From Methanobacteriota archaeon (lineage in GTDB: Archaea; Thermoplasmatota; Thermoplasmata; SG8-5; JAGLSY01), in contig JAEHCO010000002.1 in assembly GCA_020697715.1 (NCBI GenBank), forward strand, positions 1 through 64,000: a stretch of 64,000 bases of DNA. Direction: 5' to 3'. A program made the translations under genes and the position numbers. Shown here in pieces: positions 39,818-62,742 of this stretch; position 1 is the first letter of the stretch; the number at the start of each line of letters is the position of its first letter. Under the pieces are notes generated by a model, which had not been told where the DNA came from, searched no databases, and was given only the letters and a program-made list of their open reading frames with translations.

Positions 39818-41941
39818 TTACTTGTGTTCTTTGCCCCTCCTTTTTTTATCTTTCAGACCTCTGAATTTCGCGAACATGACAGCCCCTACAATGAATGTAG
39901 TGACTATGAGCAGGACTCCTGGGAATGGCATGGATAGTCCAAGATCTTCCGAATTTTCCACATTATAGTCGTCTGATGTTGAATTTCCAACTCCATCATC
40001 ATCTATATCTACTCCACCATTGGATGGGTATGTGCCGCTCACTGGTGTCGAAGGGTCTATCGCACTTGATGTTGTACTATTGGTGTCTGGAAGGGTCTGA
40101 GATGGGTCGGTATTAGCATCAGCATCAGTATCAATTGGTTGAGCTGTGGTTCCCCAGTCATATATTGTACCGTCTACTGGTATGTAACTGGTCTTGTATA
40201 ATTCATAGGTGGCGAGATCAAGACCTGCGGCTTCCAGAGCATCCTCCAGCTGATCACCAGAGATGAAGGATGTGTAGGGAGTGACAAAGTTGTAGCTCAC
40301 AGCTATTGAGATTATCTCATTAACGGTCTCATTGGTCTCACCCTCTACAGATATCTTATCCAGTAGATGATTGATCCTCGCATAGGCCCAGAATCTGGCC
40401 ACATAATCATTATCCGGGTCAGGATCTGAATGGAATGTTCTGGAATAGGTCATTGCCCCCAAGTCACTCATCGCGCTTATATCCGCTATAACCTCACTGT
40501 TACCCTTAGGGTAAATGCCAGAGACCACGATCTCCGAGCCCTGGAAGAGACTTTTTGTCTCTTTAGGATACCACATACTAGCATCTGGTGAGTATTCGAA
40601 ACTTATATTGCCGAGCATGGTCACGGATATCATGTCATAGAAATCGGTAATCTGGTCAGCTGCATCTGTCCCGAGATATATTTTCAATGCCTCTCCATCA
40701 TTCTCCAGTGAGATGGCCTCTAAAAGATCGAAATCAACATCATCTCCAAATCCAAGACAATATATCTGAGCCCCTATGCTATTTGAATTTATGATCTCCT
40801 GCCTTAGAATATCTGGATCCGTGCTGCCCTGACCATCGGTGAGCAGTACCAATATGGGATTGTCGCTCTCTGCCGATACCAGTTGATCCAAGCCGTCAAC
40901 CATTGCGTTTTTGATATTTGTCCCGCCTCCTGCACCGACACCATTTACGGTCGAGATCGCATCGGTCTTCTCTGTCGTATCTGCTGGAATAAGATCCGAT
41001 CCCAAAGGTTCACTAGTGACTGAATCGAATAGCACTATACCGAAAGAATCGCGAGTATCCAGGGCTGGCAAGATGGCGGAGAAAGCCTCTTTCACCTGTG
41101 CGATCTTATCACCAGTCATCGAACCGCTCTTATCTATACAGAAAGTGATCTGCTTGGGCATGGTATTGCCACCCACATCATCCAGTTCAGGAGAGAAGAT
41201 GTGCATGAAATAACCTGTATTATCGTCCTCGAAGAAGACCATATTCCCCTCATCCGAGGGATTGGCCACTTCATAGTTTATGATTATCATCTTCCCCAGA
41301 AATTCTGGGGCGTCGCTGGCCTTCACAAGAACCTTGCTGATGCTCTCTGTCTCGATAACAGGCTCTTGAAAACCAGATATTGTGACATTGCTGATCTCCT
41401 CCGTATAGTGGATCATGGCCTCAAATTCAAAGGTACCCTGGAAGGTTTCTGGATCAATGATCTGACTGTAATTGTAGAATCCTGTTTTTCGGGGTATGAT
41501 CTCCTCATATCTGAATACCACCTCTGCAGTCTCCCCTGCCTCGAGGTTGAAGCTATGTGTGTAAACAGAATTGCCACGGTACGTCATGTGACTGGCTGTT
41601 ACACCAATTGAGACCTGATAATCATAGGCGGCGGCAGCAATATCTTTCGGTACAACGATCGAATACATCACATCCTCTCCGATGGTCAGTGTAAGATTTG
41701 AAACAAGTGCTCTTTCCGAAATACTATAAGAAAAAGTATGTTCGGCCGCAATATCGCCATTGTTCACGAATCCCTGTGTCACCTCGGTAATGGCATATGA
41801 ATTATGTATTCTCACATCCACTTTGGTATATTCCATCTCTATATTACTGGTCTGATCGTCCTCCAATGCCATAACTGGCAGGACCAGCATCAATCCTAAT
41901 ACAAGCACACACATATTAATCAAAGCTCTTCCATCTGACAT
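39818..41941 (-). CDS. Secreted VIT + vWA (ITIH-like) protein with a membrane anchor
   Basis: Signal peptide, VIT-like N-terminus, MIDAS DKSGSM, GGTNI, LLTDG, GFG.DVD, VTPYTS, Thr/Asp linker, MPFPG + TM + basic tail. Confidence 0.88.
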   Translation of the reverse strand: MSDGRALINMCVLVLGLMLVLPVMALEDDQTSNIEMEYTKVDVRIHNSYAITEVTQGFVNNGDIAAEHTFSYSISERALVSNLTLTIGEDVMYSIVVPKDIAAAAYDYQVSIGVTASHMTYRGNSVYTHSFNLEAGETAEVVFRYEEIIPRKTGFYNYSQIIDPETFQGTFEFEAMIHYTEEISNVTISGFQEPVIETESISKVLVKASDAPEFLGKMIIINYEVANPSDEGNMVFFEDDNTGYFMHIFSPELDDVGGNTMPKQITFCIDKSGSMTGDKIAQVKEAFSAILPALDTRDSFGIVLFDSVTSEPLGSDLIPADTTEKTDAISTVNGVGAGGGTNIKNAMVDGLDQLVSAESDNPILVLLTDGQGSTDPDILRQEIINSNSIGAQIYCLGFGDDVDFDLLEAISLENDGEALKIYLGTDAADQITDFYDMISVTMLGNISFEYSPDASMWYPKETKSLFQGSEIVVSGIYPKGNSEVIADISAMSDLGAMTYSRTFHSDPDPDNDYVARFWAYARINHLLDKISVEGETNETVNEIISIAVSYNFVTPYTSFISGDQLEDALEAAGLDLATYELYKTSYIPVDGTIYDWGTTAQPIDTDADANTDPSQTLPDTNSTTSSAIDPSTPVSGTYPSNGGVDIDDDGVGNSTSDDYNVENSEDLGLSMPFPGVLLIVTTFIVGAVMFAKFRGLKDKKRRGKEHK

Positions 41942-50031: not shown

Positions 50032-53000
50032 TTGGGGGAAATGGGAAGCAAAAAAGATGTAATCAATCAATTAACACAGGTTCCTGGCATTGGTCGAGCG
50101 AGAGCTCGGGTCATGTACGATAATGGGATCATGAGCCTGGACGATCTTAGATCCTTCACTGCTTCCGAACTTTCATCCAAGATCTCAAGTATTCCTATAG
50201 ATGCCGCAGAGGAAATTGTGAAATATATCAATGATCTTTTTTCAGATGAGCTGGATGAATTGGGTGAATTATCTGAAGCTGAAGAGGATTTCATATTCAG
50301 TGATACGGAAATAACTTCGATAGATGAAAACGCGATATCCGATCTTGAAGAAGATGTACTTGATGACATTCTTGGAGAGTTCATGGGGGATGATCTCGTT
50401 GAAGATACTGGCATTGACATAAGTGATGACCTGATCGACTCTCTTGATGAGATGATATTTGATGAGAGCGAGGAAAAACCAGACCATCCAATTGGACATG
50501 AAGATATCGATGATGTGATCCTGTCAGAGGAGACCGTGGTCTTCGATCTTGACGGTGATGATATAACCCTCATATTGGAAGAACTGGATGACATTACTGA
50601 TGAAGGTTTAGATGACCAATCGATAAGTGATGTGGATCTTGATCTTGAATCTGATGATAAACCTGATGATGCCCCAATAAGCGAAGGCGATCCAGATATT
50701 CTTCCTGTCAGTGATGATGCCGAGTCTGATGAGGATTATTACGGGGTCGATATCAGTGATGATCTAATGGGTGATCTTGATGATCTGATGGGCGACACAT
50801 CTTCGTCAGAACCCGATCGGGAGTCCGAAGATGTGACAGATGTCCCAGATGAAGAATTCTCAAGTCTCTCTCCTGTAGACGACATTGAAGAAGATGAACT
50901 GACCTCCATTCTGGATGACCTTGATGAATTCCAACTGGATGATGGTGATATCGGAGATGATGAACTATCATTCTCACTTGGCATGGATATCAGCGAGGAT
51001 CTGATAGATGCACTTGATGAGATGATCGAGCCATCTTCAACTGATGAACAAGTTGAAGAGATCGACCCTGCCCCCTCCTCCCCAGATGATGACATATATT
51101 TGATGAAGCCAACCATCTTGGATGAAGAAAGTGATGAGCTGGTAGACCTGCTTGATGACCTGTCTTTAGATTCCCTTGATGAGGATGCACTTGAAGATCA
51201 GGAAGTTCCGATAGATCATATCGTGGAGGCTGATCTTGCAGATGAAGAATTACTGGATATCAGTGATGAGATCTTCAGTGATCTTGATGACCTGTTGAGT
51301 GGTGATGCTCTTGACGATGACGACGATGATGATGACTGGGATCTCGGAACTATTGGAGGGGATTCTGATCCAGGGTTCGATATTACGGAAGATGAAGATA
51401 CCATAGAGGATCTTGAATTGAGTTCCAGTGTGGACGATACTCTTGAAGACGATTTCCAGATATCCGCACCTATTATCACCCATGTGGATGATATTGAAGA
51501 TCTCGATGATGATCTCGCCAAAGACCTTGAAGATCTAAGTGAAGAACTGACCGCGTTCTCAGATCAAGAAGAAGAGCCCAATATCTGCGAACAATGCGGC
51601 GAGACCATTTATGATGATGTGTCCAAATGCCCCTCTTGCCATGATAAGGTCAAAGAAGAGAAAGGCCTGATCAATAGAGGCTTTGTACACGGGGCGATGA
51701 GTGGCCGTGGTCGTGTAACTGGCCTGGTGAATGGCATTGACAAGGTGGAAGGCCGTATCAATGGTATGATCAATGGTACTGGCAAGATCAATGGTATGAT
51801 CAATGGTGTCGGTAGCATCAGTGGAAAGGTCAATGGTCTGGAAGATGGAAAGGCCAGGATAACTGGCAAGATCAATGGAGTAAGAGAATTCGATGGATAT
51901 GTGAACGGCCTTACAAATGGAAAAGGCCGTGTCAATGGCATGGTCAATGGAATGATCAATGGCATGGTCAATGGTCGTGTCAATGGTCTTACAAATGGTA
52001 GGAGGACTGGCCGCGTCAATGGTATGGTCAATGGACAGGGTCGTGTTTACACCACATTCCAGCCAACCATGCCCGAGGTCGGCGTCCCTTCAATAGGTTA
52101 TCCACGAGAGGTCAAGCGAAGGCAATTGCTCAAGAAACTCGTTCTTATGGCATCTGTGATAATGTTGATCTCCACTCTACTGGGGGTGACGTACGACCCT
52201 GCAGGAACCCAGGATGTATTAGATATCCAAATAGATGGAGATTTCGCAGACTGGGATGATTATCAGATAATGACATTCGAAGCAGAGGAAGCGGATTTCA
52301 ATCCCAATGTGGACATTGTCCGATGTGGTGCCGAGGATAATGGAGAAATGTACCTGGCACTGTATCTCGGGGTCAGTGGAAACATGATGGGTGGTGAACC
52401 TGTAGCTTCAAGTGCCCTTCAGGACACGTTCTACATATTCATTGACAGCGACAATAGCGATTCAACAGGCTATAAGATATCTGGCATGGGGGCTGATCAT
52501 ATGCTCATGGTCTCTGGATGGAGTGGAAGAGTATTGTCTTCGGTCCTTCATGACTATGTGCCCCTGAATGATGACCAGTCTCTGGATGATGGTCTGAATT
52601 GGAATTATTTCAGACCCGGCCCTACCATTTATTCTGGTGTGAATGCTGATGAACTGGAAGTGCAGATCGGCTGGGAGCTCTTTGGACTTTATGAACCAGC
52701 TCCTGTGGATATACTGATAACCTCACGCAGTTGGGATGGGTACGAGGACAGTGTGGATCATATAATGAGCATAGAAAAGAGCGCTCTGAAGCTCACCCAG
52801 CAGGGTACAGCACCCGTGACAATAGTGTCCTCAAGCCAACATTTCCTTCAATTGGATGCAATGTCCTTCGGAGGAGACTCCCATACAATAGAGAGCATGA
52901 CGGTGGAACTCGAAGGTACTATGCCTTTGGGAGATGTTCAGAGATGCTTCATTGCCGATGGGAACGGCAATGTCCTATTCGAGACCACGGACATCCAGAA

Positions 53001-55122
53001 TGGAAGGGCAACTATCTCGATGAACCATCAGGTGACAGGAGTCCAAACACTCTATGTAGGAGCGGATATTAGCCTATCCGCCCATCCGGGCAGCACATTG
53101 AGATTGAGACTCGATGATGCTTCCAGTATCCCCGTGAACAGTGGGACCATGACATTGGACACAGACCCTTCAGTATTCTCATATTCCTATATCTGGGTAT
53201 CACCATCCCAGATAACAATGGATGGTGGTTTTTCAGACTGGCATGATGTAGGTGCTGATGCGAATGACGATGCAAGCACAAATGGAAATAATGACATCGA
53301 TGTCAGGAACTTCGCCGCGGCCTATGATGGTAGCCAGCTCGCGGTGTTCATCGATGTGGATGGCCAAATGCTTGGAGGCGAGACCATACCTCATATGAAC
53401 TATGCCCTTGCCAATGTCCCTGACCCCGGGAGCCCGCCAGTTGCTATCATCGTGGACTCGGATCGTGATGGTATACCCGATAGGAATGAATCTGGCTATG
53501 AATTTGATTTTGATAATGACGGTGTCCAAGATTCCTTGGATGATGATGATGATAATGACGGATTAACCGACTATAACAATGGCGGAACAGATGTATGGCT
53601 GAACAATACCATAACCAAGGCATCGGTATATATTGGTCCTCAAGAGGGCACTCTACCAAGGACAACTGGTGATGATGTCACGGAGATATTCATCGATTCG
53701 GATAATGATACAGGTACGGGAATGTCCATTGGTGGTATTGGAGCGGACTGGCTGATGCAAATATCTGGTAAGAACTGCCTTATCACCAATAATTCATTAT
53801 ATGTCTGGATGGAAGCTGCCAATAGGTGGTCCTATTCCCCATCCGACCTTGGTAGCGCGTATATAGATTCAACAAATATGGAATTGTCCATGGATCTTAA
53901 CACGTCCGCTGATATCAGATTGTATTTCAGAACATCGGATTGGTCAGATGGGCACGATACTCCAGATACATATTTTGATACTACAACGCAGAGCATACTT
54001 GGTACGAGAGGAGGCCCTGAATCACCTATTACCTTCGCGACCTGGGATATAGACACTATAGATGGTACCGCATCAGGAGATAATGTTGGTGAATACTGCT
54101 CAGTCGTTCTGGATTCCAGTGGATACCCGCACATCAGCTACTATAACTATACCTCAATGTCCAATGGCGACCTCAAATACGCAAAATGGACAGGAAGTGC
54201 CTGGACCATAGAGACAGTGGACAGCATGAACGATGTCGGCACGTACACTTCCATAGCACTTGATGGAAGTGGCAACCCTCACATTAGCTACTACAATGTG
54301 TCCAGTGGTGATCTGAAACATGCGAAAAGGATCAGCGGATCATGGACCAATGAGACGGTCGATGGGTCAGCTGGTGACAATGTAGGCACTTTCTCCTCGA
54401 TCGGCATTGACAGCAGTGGCAATATCCACATCAGCTATTACAACCAATCTGGTGGTGATCTGAAATATGCCAAGTATTCTGGTAGCAGCTGGAGCATCCA
54501 GACCCTTGATAAGATGAGCAATGTGGGAAAATACACATCACTTGAATTGGATGGAAGTGGCTATCCTCACATCAGCTATTATAATGTGACTGGCCAGGAT
54601 CTCATGTATGCCAAATACAGTGGAAGTGCCTGGAGCAATGAAACTGTGGATTCAGGAACTGAAATGGGCATGTTCTCTTCACTGGCCCTAGATTCCAATG
54701 GTTATGCTCACATAAGCTACATCGGGGATGTCTCATTGAAATATGCCAAGTGGACTGGCAGTAGCTGGAGCATTGCCACCGTGGACAGCGCCTCTATCTG
54801 GCCCCTATATTCGAGCATAGCCCTGGATTCTGATGAATATCCTCATATCGCCTATTCAGACACTGCGATGATGAATTTGAAATATGCTGTGTGGGATGGA
54901 AGCTCATGGAGTACGGAGAACGTAGAATCTGCAATGACGATGACAGAATCGATATTCATTGTCATCGACTCCAGTGACAGCCCAGTAATATATTATGTGG
55001 ATGAATCCGGAGGCTATCTCAAAGAGGCTGAGATATTGAATGCTCCGGAATTCCATTCGATAATACCCATTCTGGTCATGTTATGTGTTCCATTGATACT
55101 GAGAAAAAAGAATATCATTTGA
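50032..55122 (+). CDS. Giant multidomain membrane protein: HhH, acidic region, zinc ribbon, xxNG repeats, TM, extracellular beta domains, beta-propeller, PEF-CTERM-like tail
   Basis: LTQVPGIGRARA; D/E-rich region ~aa 65-515; CEQC..CPSC; 17 xxNG units; TM after KRRQ; IDGDFADW and MDGGFSDW; SIALD..G.PHISYY repeats; PEF + TM + RKK. Start 50032 (TTG) or 50041 (ATG). Confidence 0.85.
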   Translation: MGEMGSKKDVINQLTQVPGIGRARARVMYDNGIMSLDDLRSFTASELSSKISSIPIDAAEEIVKYINDLFSDELDELGELSEAEEDFIFSDTEITSIDENAISDLEEDVLDDILGEFMGDDLVEDTGIDISDDLIDSLDEMIFDESEEKPDHPIGHEDIDDVILSEETVVFDLDGDDITLILEELDDITDEGLDDQSISDVDLDLESDDKPDDAPISEGDPDILPVSDDAESDEDYYGVDISDDLMGDLDDLMGDTSSSEPDRESEDVTDVPDEEFSSLSPVDDIEEDELTSILDDLDEFQLDDGDIGDDELSFSLGMDISEDLIDALDEMIEPSSTDEQVEEIDPAPSSPDDDIYLMKPTILDEESDELVDLLDDLSLDSLDEDALEDQEVPIDHIVEADLADEELLDISDEIFSDLDDLLSGDALDDDDDDDDWDLGTIGGDSDPGFDITEDEDTIEDLELSSSVDDTLEDDFQISAPIITHVDDIEDLDDDLAKDLEDLSEELTAFSDQEEEPNICEQCGETIYDDVSKCPSCHDKVKEEKGLINRGFVHGAMSGRGRVTGLVNGIDKVEGRINGMINGTGKINGMINGVGSISGKVNGLEDGKARITGKINGVREFDGYVNGLTNGKGRVNGMVNGMINGMVNGRVNGLTNGRRTGRVNGMVNGQGRVYTTFQPTMPEVGVPSIGYPREVKRRQLLKKLVLMASVIMLISTLLGVTYDPAGTQDVLDIQIDGDFADWDDYQIMTFEAEEADFNPNVDIVRCGAEDNGEMYLALYLGVSGNMMGGEPVASSALQDTFYIFIDSDNSDSTGYKISGMGADHMLMVSGWSGRVLSSVLHDYVPLNDDQSLDDGLNWNYFRPGPTIYSGVNADELEVQIGWELFGLYEPAPVDILITSRSWDGYEDSVDHIMSIEKSALKLTQQGTAPVTIVSSSQHFLQLDAMSFGGDSHTIESMTVELEGTMPLGDVQRCFIADGNGNVLFETTDIQNGRATISMNHQVTGVQTLYVGADISLSAHPGSTLRLRLDDASSIPVNSGTMTLDTDPSVFSYSYIWVSPSQITMDGGFSDWHDVGADANDDASTNGNNDIDVRNFAAAYDGSQLAVFIDVDGQMLGGETIPHMNYALANVPDPGSPPVAIIVDSDRDGIPDRNESGYEFDFDNDGVQDSLDDDDDNDGLTDYNNGGTDVWLNNTITKASVYIGPQEGTLPRTTGDDVTEIFIDSDNDTGTGMSIGGIGADWLMQISGKNCLITNNSLYVWMEAANRWSYSPSDLGSAYIDSTNMELSMDLNTSADIRLYFRTSDWSDGHDTPDTYFDTTTQSILGTRGGPESPITFATWDIDTIDGTASGDNVGEYCSVVLDSSGYPHISYYNYTSMSNGDLKYAKWTGSAWTIETVDSMNDVGTYTSIALDGSGNPHISYYNVSSGDLKHAKRISGSWTNETVDGSAGDNVGTFSSIGIDSSGNIHISYYNQSGGDLKYAKYSGSSWSIQTLDKMSNVGKYTSLELDGSGYPHISYYNVTGQDLMYAKYSGSAWSNETVDSGTEMGMFSSLALDSNGYAHISYIGDVSLKYAKWTGSSWSIATVDSASIWPLYSSIALDSDEYPHIAYSDTAMMNLKYAVWDGSSWSTENVESAMTMTESIFIVIDSSDSPVIYYVDESGGYLKEAEILNAPEFHSIIPILVMLCVPLILRKKNII

Positions 55123-55217
55123 ACGCATTTGAATGATTAATTATAATGATTTAATAGTATCAATTATTTATTATTCTATTTTATTATTCTATTATATATG
55201 GATAATATCTATTCTTT

Positions 55218-55263
55218 ATAATATAGTATAATATAGTATAATATAGCATAATATAGCATAATA
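55218..55263. repeat. 10-bp tandem repeat (ATAATATAGY) x4.5
   Basis: ATAATATAGT x2, ATAATATAGC x2, then ATAATA. Confidence 0.85.
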
Positions 55264-55321: not shown

Positions 55322-55909
55322 ATGGACCTCACAAAAAAGAATGGTCACATAGCCAGAAGAGTATTCCACTTATTTGCTCCTTTTGTCTTTATTTATTATC
55401 TATTTCCCGAGGATTTCTTTGGCTTTGGGAGGCAGAATATCCTCATCATTGTATTTGTTCTTATAATGATCCACGAGGCCAACCGTCTCAGGAGAAAAAA
55501 AGTATATTTCGGCATGAGGGAATATGAAGCAAACCAATTGTCTGCTTATGGATGGGCTTCCATAGGCGTCTTCATCGCCTTCATGTTCTTCCCATTGCTC
55601 TTTGTGATCCCCGCAATAACAGGTATTGGCTGGACCGATCCTCTTATTGGTGAGATGAAAAGACGGAATATGAAAGGCTACCCATATATTCCGCTACTTG
55701 TTTACTTCCTCATCACTTTCTTCAGCTTTCTGCTTTTCTCCGAGCCTCTTGGATATGATATGGCCGTATCTACGATGGCGCTTCTCGCCATCGTCGGAGC
55801 TATTGTGGCTATAGCTGTGGAGAAGCCCAGTGTGAAATATGTGGATGATGATTTTCTCATGATGGTGGTTCCATTGTTCGTCATATATTTCCTTTATCTG
55901 GTCATCTGA
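55322..55909 (+). CDS. Dolichol/phytol kinase-cytidylyltransferase family membrane protein
   Basis: RR.FH, E..RL, R.YE, DP..G, E....DDDF motifs across multiple TMs. Confidence 0.7.
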   Translation: MDLTKKNGHIARRVFHLFAPFVFIYYLFPEDFFGFGRQNILIIVFVLIMIHEANRLRRKKVYFGMREYEANQLSAYGWASIGVFIAFMFFPLLFVIPAITGIGWTDPLIGEMKRRNMKGYPYIPLLVYFLITFFSFLLFSEPLGYDMAVSTMALLAIVGAIVAIAVEKPSVKYVDDDFLMMVVPLFVIYFLYLVI

Positions 55910-56241: not shown

Positions 56242-56251
56242 GGTGAATGGG

Positions 56252-56575
56252 ATGGATATCAATTTAGAGCAGTTCGCGACAGTATTCATGTTGACATTTG
56301 CATTGTTTCTTGCAGTTGCAGGTGTTTTCACGAGCTATTTTGGAAGTGGAAAGAGCAGGAAAATAGGCTTCGGACTTATGATCGGCGGTCTTGTACTTGG
56401 AATTCTATGGGTTATTTTGACATCATGGAATCCGATAATTGAGGGTGCGCCCATGGTCGATATTGGAATGAGCCTCCAGGACTTGATAACACAGTCTATT
56501 CTTGTGATCGCTGCAGCGGCCATCGGTGCCCTGGCAGCTGTTGGAATATTCTTACTTTCCATCATGAAATCCTAG
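56252..56575 (+). CDS. Small 3-TM membrane protein
   Basis: GVFTSYFGSGKSRKIG, ending GIFLLSIMKS; GAGGTGA RBS. Confidence 0.75.
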   Translation: MDINLEQFATVFMLTFALFLAVAGVFTSYFGSGKSRKIGFGLMIGGLVLGILWVILTSWNPIIEGAPMVDIGMSLQDLITQSILVIAAAAIGALAAVGIFLLSIMKS

Positions 56576-61630: not shown

Positions 61631-61764
61631 TCTTCGAGCACCAGGTATACCCCGTGTAAAATGAGAATCGTGCTTCGACCTCATATCTAATTAGAATTAC
61701 CTCAAATGAATTTAGGGTATAAGGTTATAAATATCAATAACTATCGTTAATTCGAGGAATGTGG

Positions 61765-62742
61765 ATGAAAATTCTGATAGTTGAAGATTATGAGCCATCT
61801 ATAGACAAGCTGGGAGCGATCTTGACCAAGGCAGGTCATAAAGTAATTTCTGCCAAGAATGGAAGTGATGGTCTCGATAAATACCGAAAGGACGTGTATG
61901 ATGTCGTGTTCATGGACTGGACACTCCCCGATATGGATGGAAACAGGCTTGCCAGTGATATGCGTGATACCGACACAATGAGACAGAGGAATTCCTATCT
62001 CATCATGACCACTGGTAGGAATAAAAAGCATGATATGTTGGAGGCCATGGAGGCTGGTATTGATGATTTCATGCTCAAGCCCTATGATAAGGCGGTTGTA
62101 ATATCCAGGTTGACCATTGCCAAGCAGATAATGGATGCCAGGGATGATAAGACAGCCGGAATCCCCGATATCATGGACATATTTGAGAAAGAACATGAGT
62201 TAGTCAGCAGGGTGACTGGCATAATGGAGATGACATTCAATATGCTGGATGAATCACGCCCCATTCCTGAAAAGCTTCTGACATGGTGCACATCCTCCGC
62301 TTTCCTCTTGGACTTCCAGGTCCATGAGAGGAAAGAGGATTTCTATATCGAAAGGTTCATCGAGAGAGCCAAGGAAGAACATGGCAAGACCTCGGAATTG
62401 TTTTCCAGATCGTCAATGGCACAGATAATGAAGGAACATGAGATAATCAAGAAGCTCCTCATAAACATGCAGAAGACCATTAAAGATAGGAATTCTGATG
62501 GGGAATTTGACATCCTGAAATTAAAGAAATTCATTGGCCAGTATGTGGAATTGATAAGATTACACAAGGCTCGTGAGGATGATATATTCTTTCCCTTCAC
62601 TATGAGATACCTAAATCCGGATGACATCAAGTATTTGGAAGATGAATTTCTGAAGATAGACGAGAAGGTGGGCATTGAAAAGATAGATGCCAGGATAAAG
62701 ACACTGGGTCATCTTGAGGACGTCCTCAAGATCGATGTTTGA
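61765..62742 (+). CDS. Response regulator receiver domain fused to a hemerythrin (HHE) domain
   Basis: KILIVED, DW.LPDMDG, T, AG.DDF..KP; EHE, H..KED, EHE, H..RED..F. Confidence 0.85.
   Translation: MKILIVEDYEPSIDKLGAILTKAGHKVISAKNGSDGLDKYRKDVYDVVFMDWTLPDMDGNRLASDMRDTDTMRQRNSYLIMTTGRNKKHDMLEAMEAGIDDFMLKPYDKAVVISRLTIAKQIMDARDDKTAGIPDIMDIFEKEHELVSRVTGIMEMTFNMLDESRPIPEKLLTWCTSSAFLLDFQVHERKEDFYIERFIERAKEEHGKTSELFSRSSMAQIMKEHEIIKKLLINMQKTIKDRNSDGEFDILKLKKFIGQYVELIRLHKAREDDIFFPFTMRYLNPDDIKYLEDEFLKIDEKVGIEKIDARIKTLGHLEDVLKIDV

Follow-up and report, generated by a model that had tools for sequence, protein, structure and literature searches.

Among described systems that come close to the locus reported here, ComEA is the membrane-anchored helix-hairpin-helix (HhH) DNA receptor of competent bacteria, having its HhH domain outside the cell, and a coat usually consists of a single dominant, conserved protein that bears a signal peptide and lacks a large cytoplasmic domain. 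Regarding C-terminal sorting tails, ArtC recognizes the PEF-CTERM signal, as stated in the consulted part of the source (PMC5244752), and the consulted part of a second source limits the experimental study of archaeosortases to ArtA, in which case the protein loses its C-terminal helix and receives a lipid (PMC6098224). The present analysis concerns a window of 64,000 nucleotides (positions 1 to 64,000 of contig JAEHCO010000002.1, assembly GCA_020697715.1) from an uncultured Thermoplasmata archaeon, whose genome, G000, comprises 2.12 Mb in 34 contigs and is 94% complete, and, within this window, one giant gene at 50032..55122 on the + strand, the strand of all its features given below. This gene belongs to an unnamed Thermoplasmatota family in which a membrane-spanning core is kept and the parts at both ends are swapped. 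We propose that its product is a surface adhesin or receptor that binds glycans or polymers, is fixed at both ends and possesses a cytoplasmic docking arm, a reading that we hold with roughly even confidence.

Sediments, soils and oceans harbour abundant uncultured Thermoplasmatota, whose contact with the surroundings is little known. The family is a defined and widespread candidate for such surface contact: its sequence clusters number in the hundreds, and a genome holds several copies. All of its domains, as well as the tail as a sorting signal, are of already known kinds; what is new here is the combination of a signal-anchor helix with a large modular head, the cassette uniting an Asn-Gly repeat, a transmembrane (TM) helix and the core, and a clean cassette polymorphism.

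Family Architecture and Distribution

Five paralogues in G000 all possess an Asn-Gly (NG) run, one TM helix and two IDGxFxDW modules, in that order, and runs of at least five xxNG units are found in exactly these five of the 4527 open reading frames (ORFs) of the genome. In the giant protein, two [ILMV]DGxFxDW modules lie ~325 amino acids (aa) apart, at residues 734 and 1063, and a GTR motif at 1324 closes the arrangement. The conserved cassette is composed of the Asn-Gly repeat, the TM helix, a CBM9-like module (CBM, carbohydrate-binding module), a sialidase-type CBM, a second CBM9-like module with Ca loops and the GTR motif.

A search with the whole length of the protein returned 252 proteins, the best 120 of which were examined. 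Among the matches listed, most of the query is covered only by P0002 (78%) and P0003 (86%), and the other 118 cover 13-23%, apparently the C-terminal repeat region, the first-listed ones carrying DUF7253 or BNR_4. When residues 545-1330 were used, 63 proteins were found, from Thermoplasmata and Methanomassiliicoccales-type metagenome bins, and comparison of the core with family members gives E-values between 1e-76 and 1e-11. According to the precomputed Pfam annotation of these 63 matches, their heads contain TPR, HhH (23 of 63), zinc ribbons and a KaiC-like ATPase (PF06745), and their tails contain DUF11, lamin-tail and FG-GAP domains. The same parts are therefore combined in homologues, as seen both by the HhH heads of these matches and by the four genus-level orthologues that share the layout.

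Regarding distribution, of 301 genomes sampled in the class, 133 have the core (44 of 88 genera), as do 29 of 201 genomes sampled across the phylum; among 1.84 billion cluster representatives, 673 match the core at E ≤ 0.001, 460 of them at E ≤ 1e-10. In the class sample the core was undetected in whole taxonomic families, namely f9 (0/36), f13 (0/37), f20 (0/33) and f11 (0/10). The initial annotation knew of no characterized protein with this layout, and none was found in the literature, but the layout is not a solitary one, as it belongs to a large family. The literature searched for this family, DUF7253 and PEF-CTERM in Thermoplasmata, mostly outside subscription journals and with supplements excluded, contained no description of it.

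GTR Junction and the Propeller Cassette

The conserved family core ends at the GTRGG junction (residues 1324-1328; 54001..54015). In the 54-row family alignment, G is found in 44 rows and T and R in 42 rows each at the columns of the GTR motif, and the 10-15 residues ahead of it are variable across the family. What comes after GTR depends on the subgroup, being a lamin-tail domain (LTD), a DUF11 stalk, an FG-GAP-type part, a propeller, another domain or almost nothing, with a length of 49-1337 residues after the motif. As an evolutionary pattern, the swapping of this region among homologues, suggested in the initial annotation, is thus supported.

In the giant protein, the region is an optional cassette of seven repeats of ~48 aa (54034..55032), anchored at residues 1361, 1411, 1460, 1507, 1554, 1599 and 1646, in agreement with the six to seven blades counted earlier. 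These repeats are predicted to form a seven-bladed beta propeller of the DUF7253 type. DUF7253 (PF23911), with a cut-off of 25.1 bits, matches residues 1324-1667 alone with 33.6 bits in four stretches and the whole protein with 23.3 bits. A sequence search of the PDB with the propeller gave 0 matches at E up to 1, and in the nearest ESM Atlas clusters BNR_4 is annotated on 16-28% of the members, which serves as a lead only.

The propeller is present in G000 and G132 (also in P0003) and absent from G021 and G125, being carried by two of the four same-genus orthologues. In G021 and G125, GTR is followed by ~20 residues and then by the PEF tail, and two sister-genus orthologues have a different domain of ~200 residues after GTR. 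At the DNA level, the alignment of G000 and G021 extends to the codons of GTRG and resumes at those of APEF, with nothing alignable in between. No second copy of the propeller was found in G000 at E 0.001 or better, and the blades present in other ORFs of G021 are only 37-39% identical. A maximum likelihood tree of the core (8 rows, none dropped, midpoint rooting, two long paralogue branches) resolves as (G125 without, (G132 with, (G000 with, G021 without))), the supports being 87/93, 80/90 and 100/100; therefore, at least two events of propeller gain or loss are needed among the four genomes. Within one genus, the gene is polymorphic for the presence of a complete propeller flanked by two fixed motifs.

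As an identity island in a variable linker, placed before unrelated domains, GTR might also be read as a maturation site, with the Asn-Gly/TM/double-CBM part acting as a hitherto undescribed, integrin-like transmembrane coupling module of archaea, a proposal to which we give little credence. If it were true, cleavage at GTR would yield a type-II receptor (head, TM helix and core) alongside a variable partner with its own lipid anchor, in this protein the propeller, and lineages could swap the partner cassette while leaving the receptor untouched.

The Gene as a Single Reading Frame

The ORF is continuous from 50032 to 55122, having 1696 codons from a TTG and no internal stop, thus encoding 1696 aa. 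An alternative ATG is located at 50041, three codons after the TTG and 9 bases past a Shine-Dalgarno-like site, GAGGTGA. Both starts are possible, because GAGGTGA precedes the ATG and the orthologues begin, with MGDM or MGEM, at the position of the TTG; residue numbers follow the TTG throughout. The order of features in the initial annotation, from the HhH domain through the acidic arm, zinc ribbon, Asn-Gly repeat, TM helix, modules, GTRGG and repeats to the tail, was found at the places given for it.

For a protein of this composition, a misassembly joining two genes at the TM helix or at GTR has to be considered, the more so as G000 is a draft genome of 34 contigs and a sister genome has no propeller. 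However, the frame from the HhH domain to the core is continuous in G021 (on a 261-kb contig), G125 and P0003, the frame from the core through GTR and the propeller to PEF is continuous in G132 and P0003, and the giant gene itself is free of stops and even in base composition along its whole length, including the junction. Because same-genus genomes encode an equal layout in independent assemblies, a fusion artefact has next to no probability and is largely refuted, the gene being single rather than two fused ORFs.

Membrane Topology and Anchoring

The whole protein has only two hydrophobic segments, at residues 698-722 and in the C-terminal tail. The first (52123..52197) has a hydropathy peak of 2.18 and is modelled by AlphaFold2 (AF2) as a helix with a predicted local distance difference test score (pLDDT) of 95-97; it is preceded directly by six Lys/Arg residues and followed by an Asp, with zero Lys/Arg in the next 15 residues. 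Because of this charge bias, the zinc ribbon on the N-terminal side and the sortase-type tail on the C-terminal side, the topology is predicted to be N-in/C-out, with the TM helix as a signal anchor whose N-terminus is inside. By this predicted topology, the cytoplasmic region comprises ~697 aa and the ectodomain ~950 aa. The bitopic layout with a second, sortase-type anchor at the C-terminus, as formerly predicted, is in keeping with the two hydrophobic segments, the charge bias and the tripartite tail.

The PEF-type sorting tail (55042..55119) is formed by APEF, then the hydrophobic helix HSIIPILVMLCVPLIL, then RKKNII and the stop, a tripartite form at the extreme C-terminus. In the family, tails having IPE[FMYL], a helix and basic residues are near-universal; against the PEF-CTERM model TIGR03024, orthologue tails score 13.8-14.7 bits and that of the paralogue C30 scores 27.2 bits, above the cut-off. 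Two archaeosortase genes of G000 are relevant, one for ArtA (TIGR04125, 120 bits, cut-off 75) and one for an ArtC-like protein of 415 aa (G000:C1:5365-6609), in which the exo/archaeosortase signature is recognized with 55.8 bits (cut-off 23). The latter exceeds the 274 positions of the ArtC model by ~140 aa and may belong to a separate archaeosortase subfamily linked with the giant-protein family. Among the 301 class genomes, 93 have both the core and the ArtC-like gene, 40 only the core, 8 only the ArtC-like gene and 160 neither, a co-occurrence that is suggestive only, since related genomes do not count as independent cases and many of them are incomplete. Put differently, the core is found in 93 of the 101 genomes bearing the ArtC-like gene, and in all eight taxonomic families without the core the ArtC-like gene is also undetected.

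Both ends of the ectodomain are placed at the membrane, because module 1 begins 12 residues after the TM helix and the last repeat ends ~4 residues before PEF. The propeller had been suggested to be an exchangeable distal tip; this does not hold as to the tip, since the cassette is membrane-proximal. A surface protein pinned at both ends and bearing a large modular cytoplasmic head is an unusual design for prokaryotes.

Such double anchoring, together with the archaeosortase-type tails, the several large paralogues per genome and the Asp-rich Ca loops common in envelope proteins, could also suit a structural coat protein, which would form, with its paralogues, the protein layer of an archaeon lacking a classical S-layer and use its head only as an anchor. 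However, the family combines heads and tails in various ways, and members of one genus can do without the propeller, in contrast to the single conserved species usual among coat proteins, and we consider this role improbable.

Ectodomain Modules

The core of the ectodomain was modelled by AF2 from residues 724-1335 (612 aa) with 54 aligned family members, resulting in a mean pLDDT of 87.2 and a predicted template modelling score of 0.84. Foldseek with the whole 612-aa model gave only multi-domain matches of low TM-score (0.09-0.19), and the sandwich assignments below come from VIA structure searches. Module 1 (52198..52791; model residues 6-193), which holds IDGDFADW at residue 734, is a CBM9/DOMON-like beta sandwich, matching the CBM9 structure 1i82 with Z 10.7 and a root-mean-square deviation (rmsd) of 3.6 over 151 aligned residues, as well as Sas6 (7uww, Z 11.8), the DOMON-like 2ivf_C (Z 10.5) and glucodextranase (1ulv, Z 9.9). 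No Pfam family, CBM9 (PF06452) included, matches residues 723-920 at E up to 10.

The middle sandwich (52792..53205; residues ~918-1055, model residues 195-332) is like the N-terminal CBM of sialidases of glycoside hydrolase family 33 (GH33), since it matches 6myv_C with Z 14.0 and an rmsd of 2.3 over 131 aligned residues, 4bbw (BTSA) with Z 13.4 and 7qy9 (NanH) with Z 13.3, the next class of matches being at Z 7.7. Module 2 (53206..54000), with MDGGFSDW at residue 1063, is homologous to module 1, as BLASTP between them gives two collinear matches (E 2e-7 and 7e-7), and possesses an insert of ~95 aa. Three DxDxDG loops lie in this insert (53455-53562; residues 1142, 1159 and 1172); the thrombospondin type 3 repeat (TSP_3, PF02412) reaches 15.2 bits there (E 0.018), below its threshold of 25, having only the DxDxDG motif in common.

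Evolutionary Rates

Comparing the locus with that of G021, the five flanking proteins are 93-95% identical, with nonsynonymous divergence (dN) of 0.028-0.041, whereas the whole giant gene has 67% identity, dN 0.22 and a ratio to synonymous divergence (dN/dS) of 0.17, such ratios being rough because dS is near saturation (about 0.4-1.8). The middle sandwich (55.8% identity, dN 0.33) and the acidic arm (58%, dN 0.30) are the variable parts given here, and the Asn-Gly repeat, with 94.6% identity and dN 0.031, is the exception. Thus, the giant gene evolves ~7 times faster than its flanks (0.22 against ~0.03), and its Asn-Gly repeat stays at the level of the housekeeping flanks. These rates fit an exposed, fast-diversifying protein built around one strongly constrained element. 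In the ectodomain (52198-54000), dS to G021 is 1.6-1.8, compared to 0.36-1.3 in the flanking genes, near saturation; this higher value could reflect older alleles or recombination at the locus.

Cytoplasmic Head and Asn-Gly Repeat

The basic xxNG repeat (aa 546-675; 51667..52056) is the most conserved segment of the gene, its identity being 94.6% to G021 and 79.8% to P0003. It has 17 NG per 152 aa, with 22 Lys/Arg against 8 Asp/Glu, and its NG runs, at 573-592 and 621-656, are followed by the TM helix within ~70 aa. In the AF2 model of residues 505-745, based on a 27-row alignment, the pLDDT is 70-81 in the zinc ribbon, 95-97 in the TM helix and 33-55 in the repeat, and because of the latter values no fold can be assigned to it. 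A complex prediction for the Asn-Gly region in three copies returned no answer (score 0.00 and mark 0.42, run without controls), and residues 505-730 had no usable match in the ESM Atlas. The cell would therefore keep, directly at the membrane, a repeat without a known fold under a constraint like that of a housekeeping enzyme.

The zinc ribbon CEQC-x10-CPSC (aa 519-536; 51586..51639) has its four Cys invariant in three orthologues. Ahead of it, the polyanionic arm (aa ~71-510; 50242..51561) contains 41% Asp/Glu, with a net charge of -176, and these ~440 residues are probably disordered. Its identity is 58% to G021, with 108 residues inserted and 26 deleted, and 36% to P0003. Acidic windows of 200 residues with >35% Asp/Glu are present in 20 G000 ORFs of at least 250 aa, extreme acidic arms being a general trait of large proteins in this organism.

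Four DIS motifs are embedded in the arm, at residue 127 (GIDISDDLIDSLDEMI; 50410..50457), residue 238 (50743..50790), residue 317 (50980..51027) and residue 407 (51250..51297). They are the only matches to G.DIS.DL...LD.M among the 4527 genome ORFs of at least 100 aa, and 3-4 copies are retained in four of four genus orthologues despite an arm identity of only 36-58%. Neither the two sister-genus orthologues nor 319 other proteins compared contain the motifs. Their persistence in a variable arm is what would be expected of short docking motifs within a disordered region, and as genus-specific acidic helix motifs they resemble docking sites.

The HhH domain occupies aa 8-70 (50053..50241), its first hairpin being canonical (VPGIG, 17-21) and its second degenerate. 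Against Pfam HHH_5 (PF14520), with a gathering cut-off of 27 bits, it scores 25.8 bits (E 1.5e-5) and that of G021 scores 24.8, and the cut-off is exceeded by the orthologues G125 (33.5) and G139 (42.6) and by the paralogues C11a (50.5) and C31 (42.7). The assignment is supported by relatives, in which the aligned domain clears the Pfam cut-off. Its best sequence match in the PDB is domain 5 of Hel308 (2zj2, E 5.4e-5), and Pol beta is also matched. In the sister-genus orthologue L043 (G167:C32), a weak winged-helix/PIN-like region at residues 25-138 replaces the HhH domain, with scores of E 0.0029 for Rrf2 and E 0.0035 for PIN_8.

Considering this composition, the HhH domain, the zinc ribbon and the Asn-Gly repeat might together tether DNA or RNA to the membrane below a surface structure. 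The HhH domain is of the type found in DNA enzymes and clears the Pfam cut-off in orthologues and paralogues, the G167 orthologue bears the weak winged-helix-like head, and the Asn-Gly repeat is basic. Nevertheless, the 440 aa with a net charge of -176 between the HhH domain and the membrane would repel nucleic acid, the second hairpin is degenerate, and the link between head and nucleic acid is drawn from domain type alone. HhH domains of such type also mediate protein contacts, and the paralogous heads with TPR, KaiC-like and zinc-ribbon domains suggest protein docking or signalling. In addition, no DNA-processing gene was found among the 17 neighbouring ORFs scanned (39.8-63.8 kb), and a nucleoid or nucleic-acid tether is accordingly judged to be rather unlikely. 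DNA uptake, another role contemplated in the initial annotation, needs an external HhH domain, and the predicted topology puts it inside.

Somewhat more probable is an outside-in signalling receptor, in which an ectodomain ligand would act through the Asn-Gly/TM cassette on cytoplasmic partners, e.g., the KaiC-like network of the lineage, adhesion being secondary. The cassette is invariant with both ends variable, the Asn-Gly repeat is constrained at the housekeeping level, and paralogous heads carry KaiC-like (PF06745) and TPR domains. On the other hand, the domain scan found neither an enzymatic nor a known output domain in the giant protein, no KaiC-family gene was found among the same 17 neighbouring ORFs, and the neighbours conserved in G021 and G125 are purine-synthesis and small membrane-protein genes. 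This possibility is therefore kept as a minor one, to be preferred over the nucleic-acid tether.

Proposed Function

In the preferred reading, that of a surface adhesin or receptor with a cytoplasmic docking arm, the internal TM helix would act as a signal anchor, and the ArtC-like archaeosortase would cut off the C-terminal helix so that a lipid anchor remains. The ectodomain would then have both of its ends fixed to the membrane and the propeller next to its C-terminal anchor, and its lectin-like modules and propeller may bind glycans or surface polymers, belonging to particles, to partners or to the cell's own coat. The ectodomain parts would diversify fast, as exposed proteins do, while the strongly constrained basic Asn-Gly repeat would sit under the membrane inside the cell. 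Meanwhile, the acidic arm could offer its four amphipathic DIS helices, together with the HhH domain, as docking sites for protein or nucleic acid partners, and binding outside would thereby be coupled to a cytoplasmic assembly. Recruitment of nucleic acid or of a cytoplasmic assembly by the head, if it takes place, would provide these archaea with a direct physical connection from the surface to the interior.

Several observations weigh against this proposal. Sugar binding is read from the fold, because the modules have no sequence match to their Pfam counterparts, and the middle sandwich likewise has none to the sialidase-like CBM (PF22585). N-glycosylation sequons are not enriched in the ectodomain, being 11 compared to the 9.5 +/- 2.7 expected. 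Regarding the anchor, the tail reaches only 13.1 bits against TIGR03024 (E 0.086), below the cut-off of 23, the ArtC-like gene reaches 64.8 bits against ArtC (TIGR03762), below the cut-off of 100, and ArtC/PEF-CTERM processing is itself a prediction. Besides the suggestive character of the co-occurrence described above, the ArtC-like gene was undetected in 40 genomes having the core, including those of the families f16 (core in 5/5, ArtC-like gene in 0/5) and f28 (3/3 against 0/3), whose members may use another anchor. Finally, the fast evolution may be due to relaxed constraint and not to diversifying selection, considering the dN/dS of 0.17 with dS near saturation.

Genomic Neighbourhood

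The giant gene has a syntenic orthologue in G021 with the same flanks, and the synteny is perfect, a purM-like gene lying on one side and, on the other, a gene for a small membrane protein and then purE and guaA-like genes. Directly downstream and on the same strand, 55322-55909 and 56243-56575 encode small multi-TM proteins of 195 aa and 110 aa, neither of which matches a family. They are kept beside the giant gene in G021 (93% and 78% identity, respectively) and in G125 (74% and 72%), and could be functionally linked to it. The AT-rich spacer before the next gene contains a tandem repeat of TATAATATAG in 4.7 copies at 55217-55263, as well as a 13-base repeat at 55167-55197; the spacer 3' of the giant gene is shorter in G021, where homology returns ~60 bases ahead of the next gene. 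Elsewhere in the window, 39818-41941 on the - strand encodes a 707-aa protein with VIT and von Willebrand A domains, likely a surface or adhesion protein, and 61759-62742 on the + strand encodes a fusion of a response-regulator receiver domain with a region weakly resembling hemerythrin.

Comparison with Known Systems

The giant protein shares with PEF-CTERM proteins (TIGR03024), which are predicted archaeosortase C substrates, the PEF motif, the hydrophobic helix and the basic cluster, with an ArtC-like gene in the same genome; however, instead of a cleaved signal peptide it possesses an internal signal-anchor TM helix and a head of 697 aa. Compared to the S-layer glycoprotein of Haloferax volcanii, processed by ArtA (PGF-CTERM), both the motif and the sortase subfamily differ, and that glycoprotein has a C-terminal anchor only and no cytoplasmic domain.

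Regarding the ectodomain, module 1 has its fold in common with CBM9 (1i82, from Thermotoga maritima Xyn10A), DOMON-like proteins and Sas6 (7uww), over 151-170 residues with Z 10.7-11.8, but it differs from CBM9 in having no Pfam match, and module 2 of the giant protein carries the Asp-rich insert of ~95 aa. The middle sandwich has the fold of the N-terminal CBM of Bacteroidetes GH33 sialidases, namely BTSA (4bbw), NanH (7qy9) and Sialidase26 (6myv), with Z 13-14 and an rmsd of 2.2-2.3 over ~130 residues, yet the identity is 8-12%, and neither a sialidase catalytic domain following it nor a sequence-family match is present in the giant protein.

With ComEA, the common feature is an HhH domain on a membrane-anchored protein. 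The ComEA-type arrangement is nevertheless not that of the giant protein, whose HhH domain is predicted to be inside, 680 residues before the TM helix and behind the polyanionic arm, with no signal peptide and with the Lys/Arg residues on the HhH side of the membrane. By analogy, integrin-type receptors are also single-pass proteins, with beta sandwiches, Ca-binding loops and a seven-unit propeller in the ectodomain, and the LD motifs of paxillin, being short acidic amphipathic helices of the L-D-x-L type, resemble the DIS motifs. This likeness is one of layout, with no homology shown, and the giant protein differs from integrins by its type II orientation and its second, lipid-type anchor.

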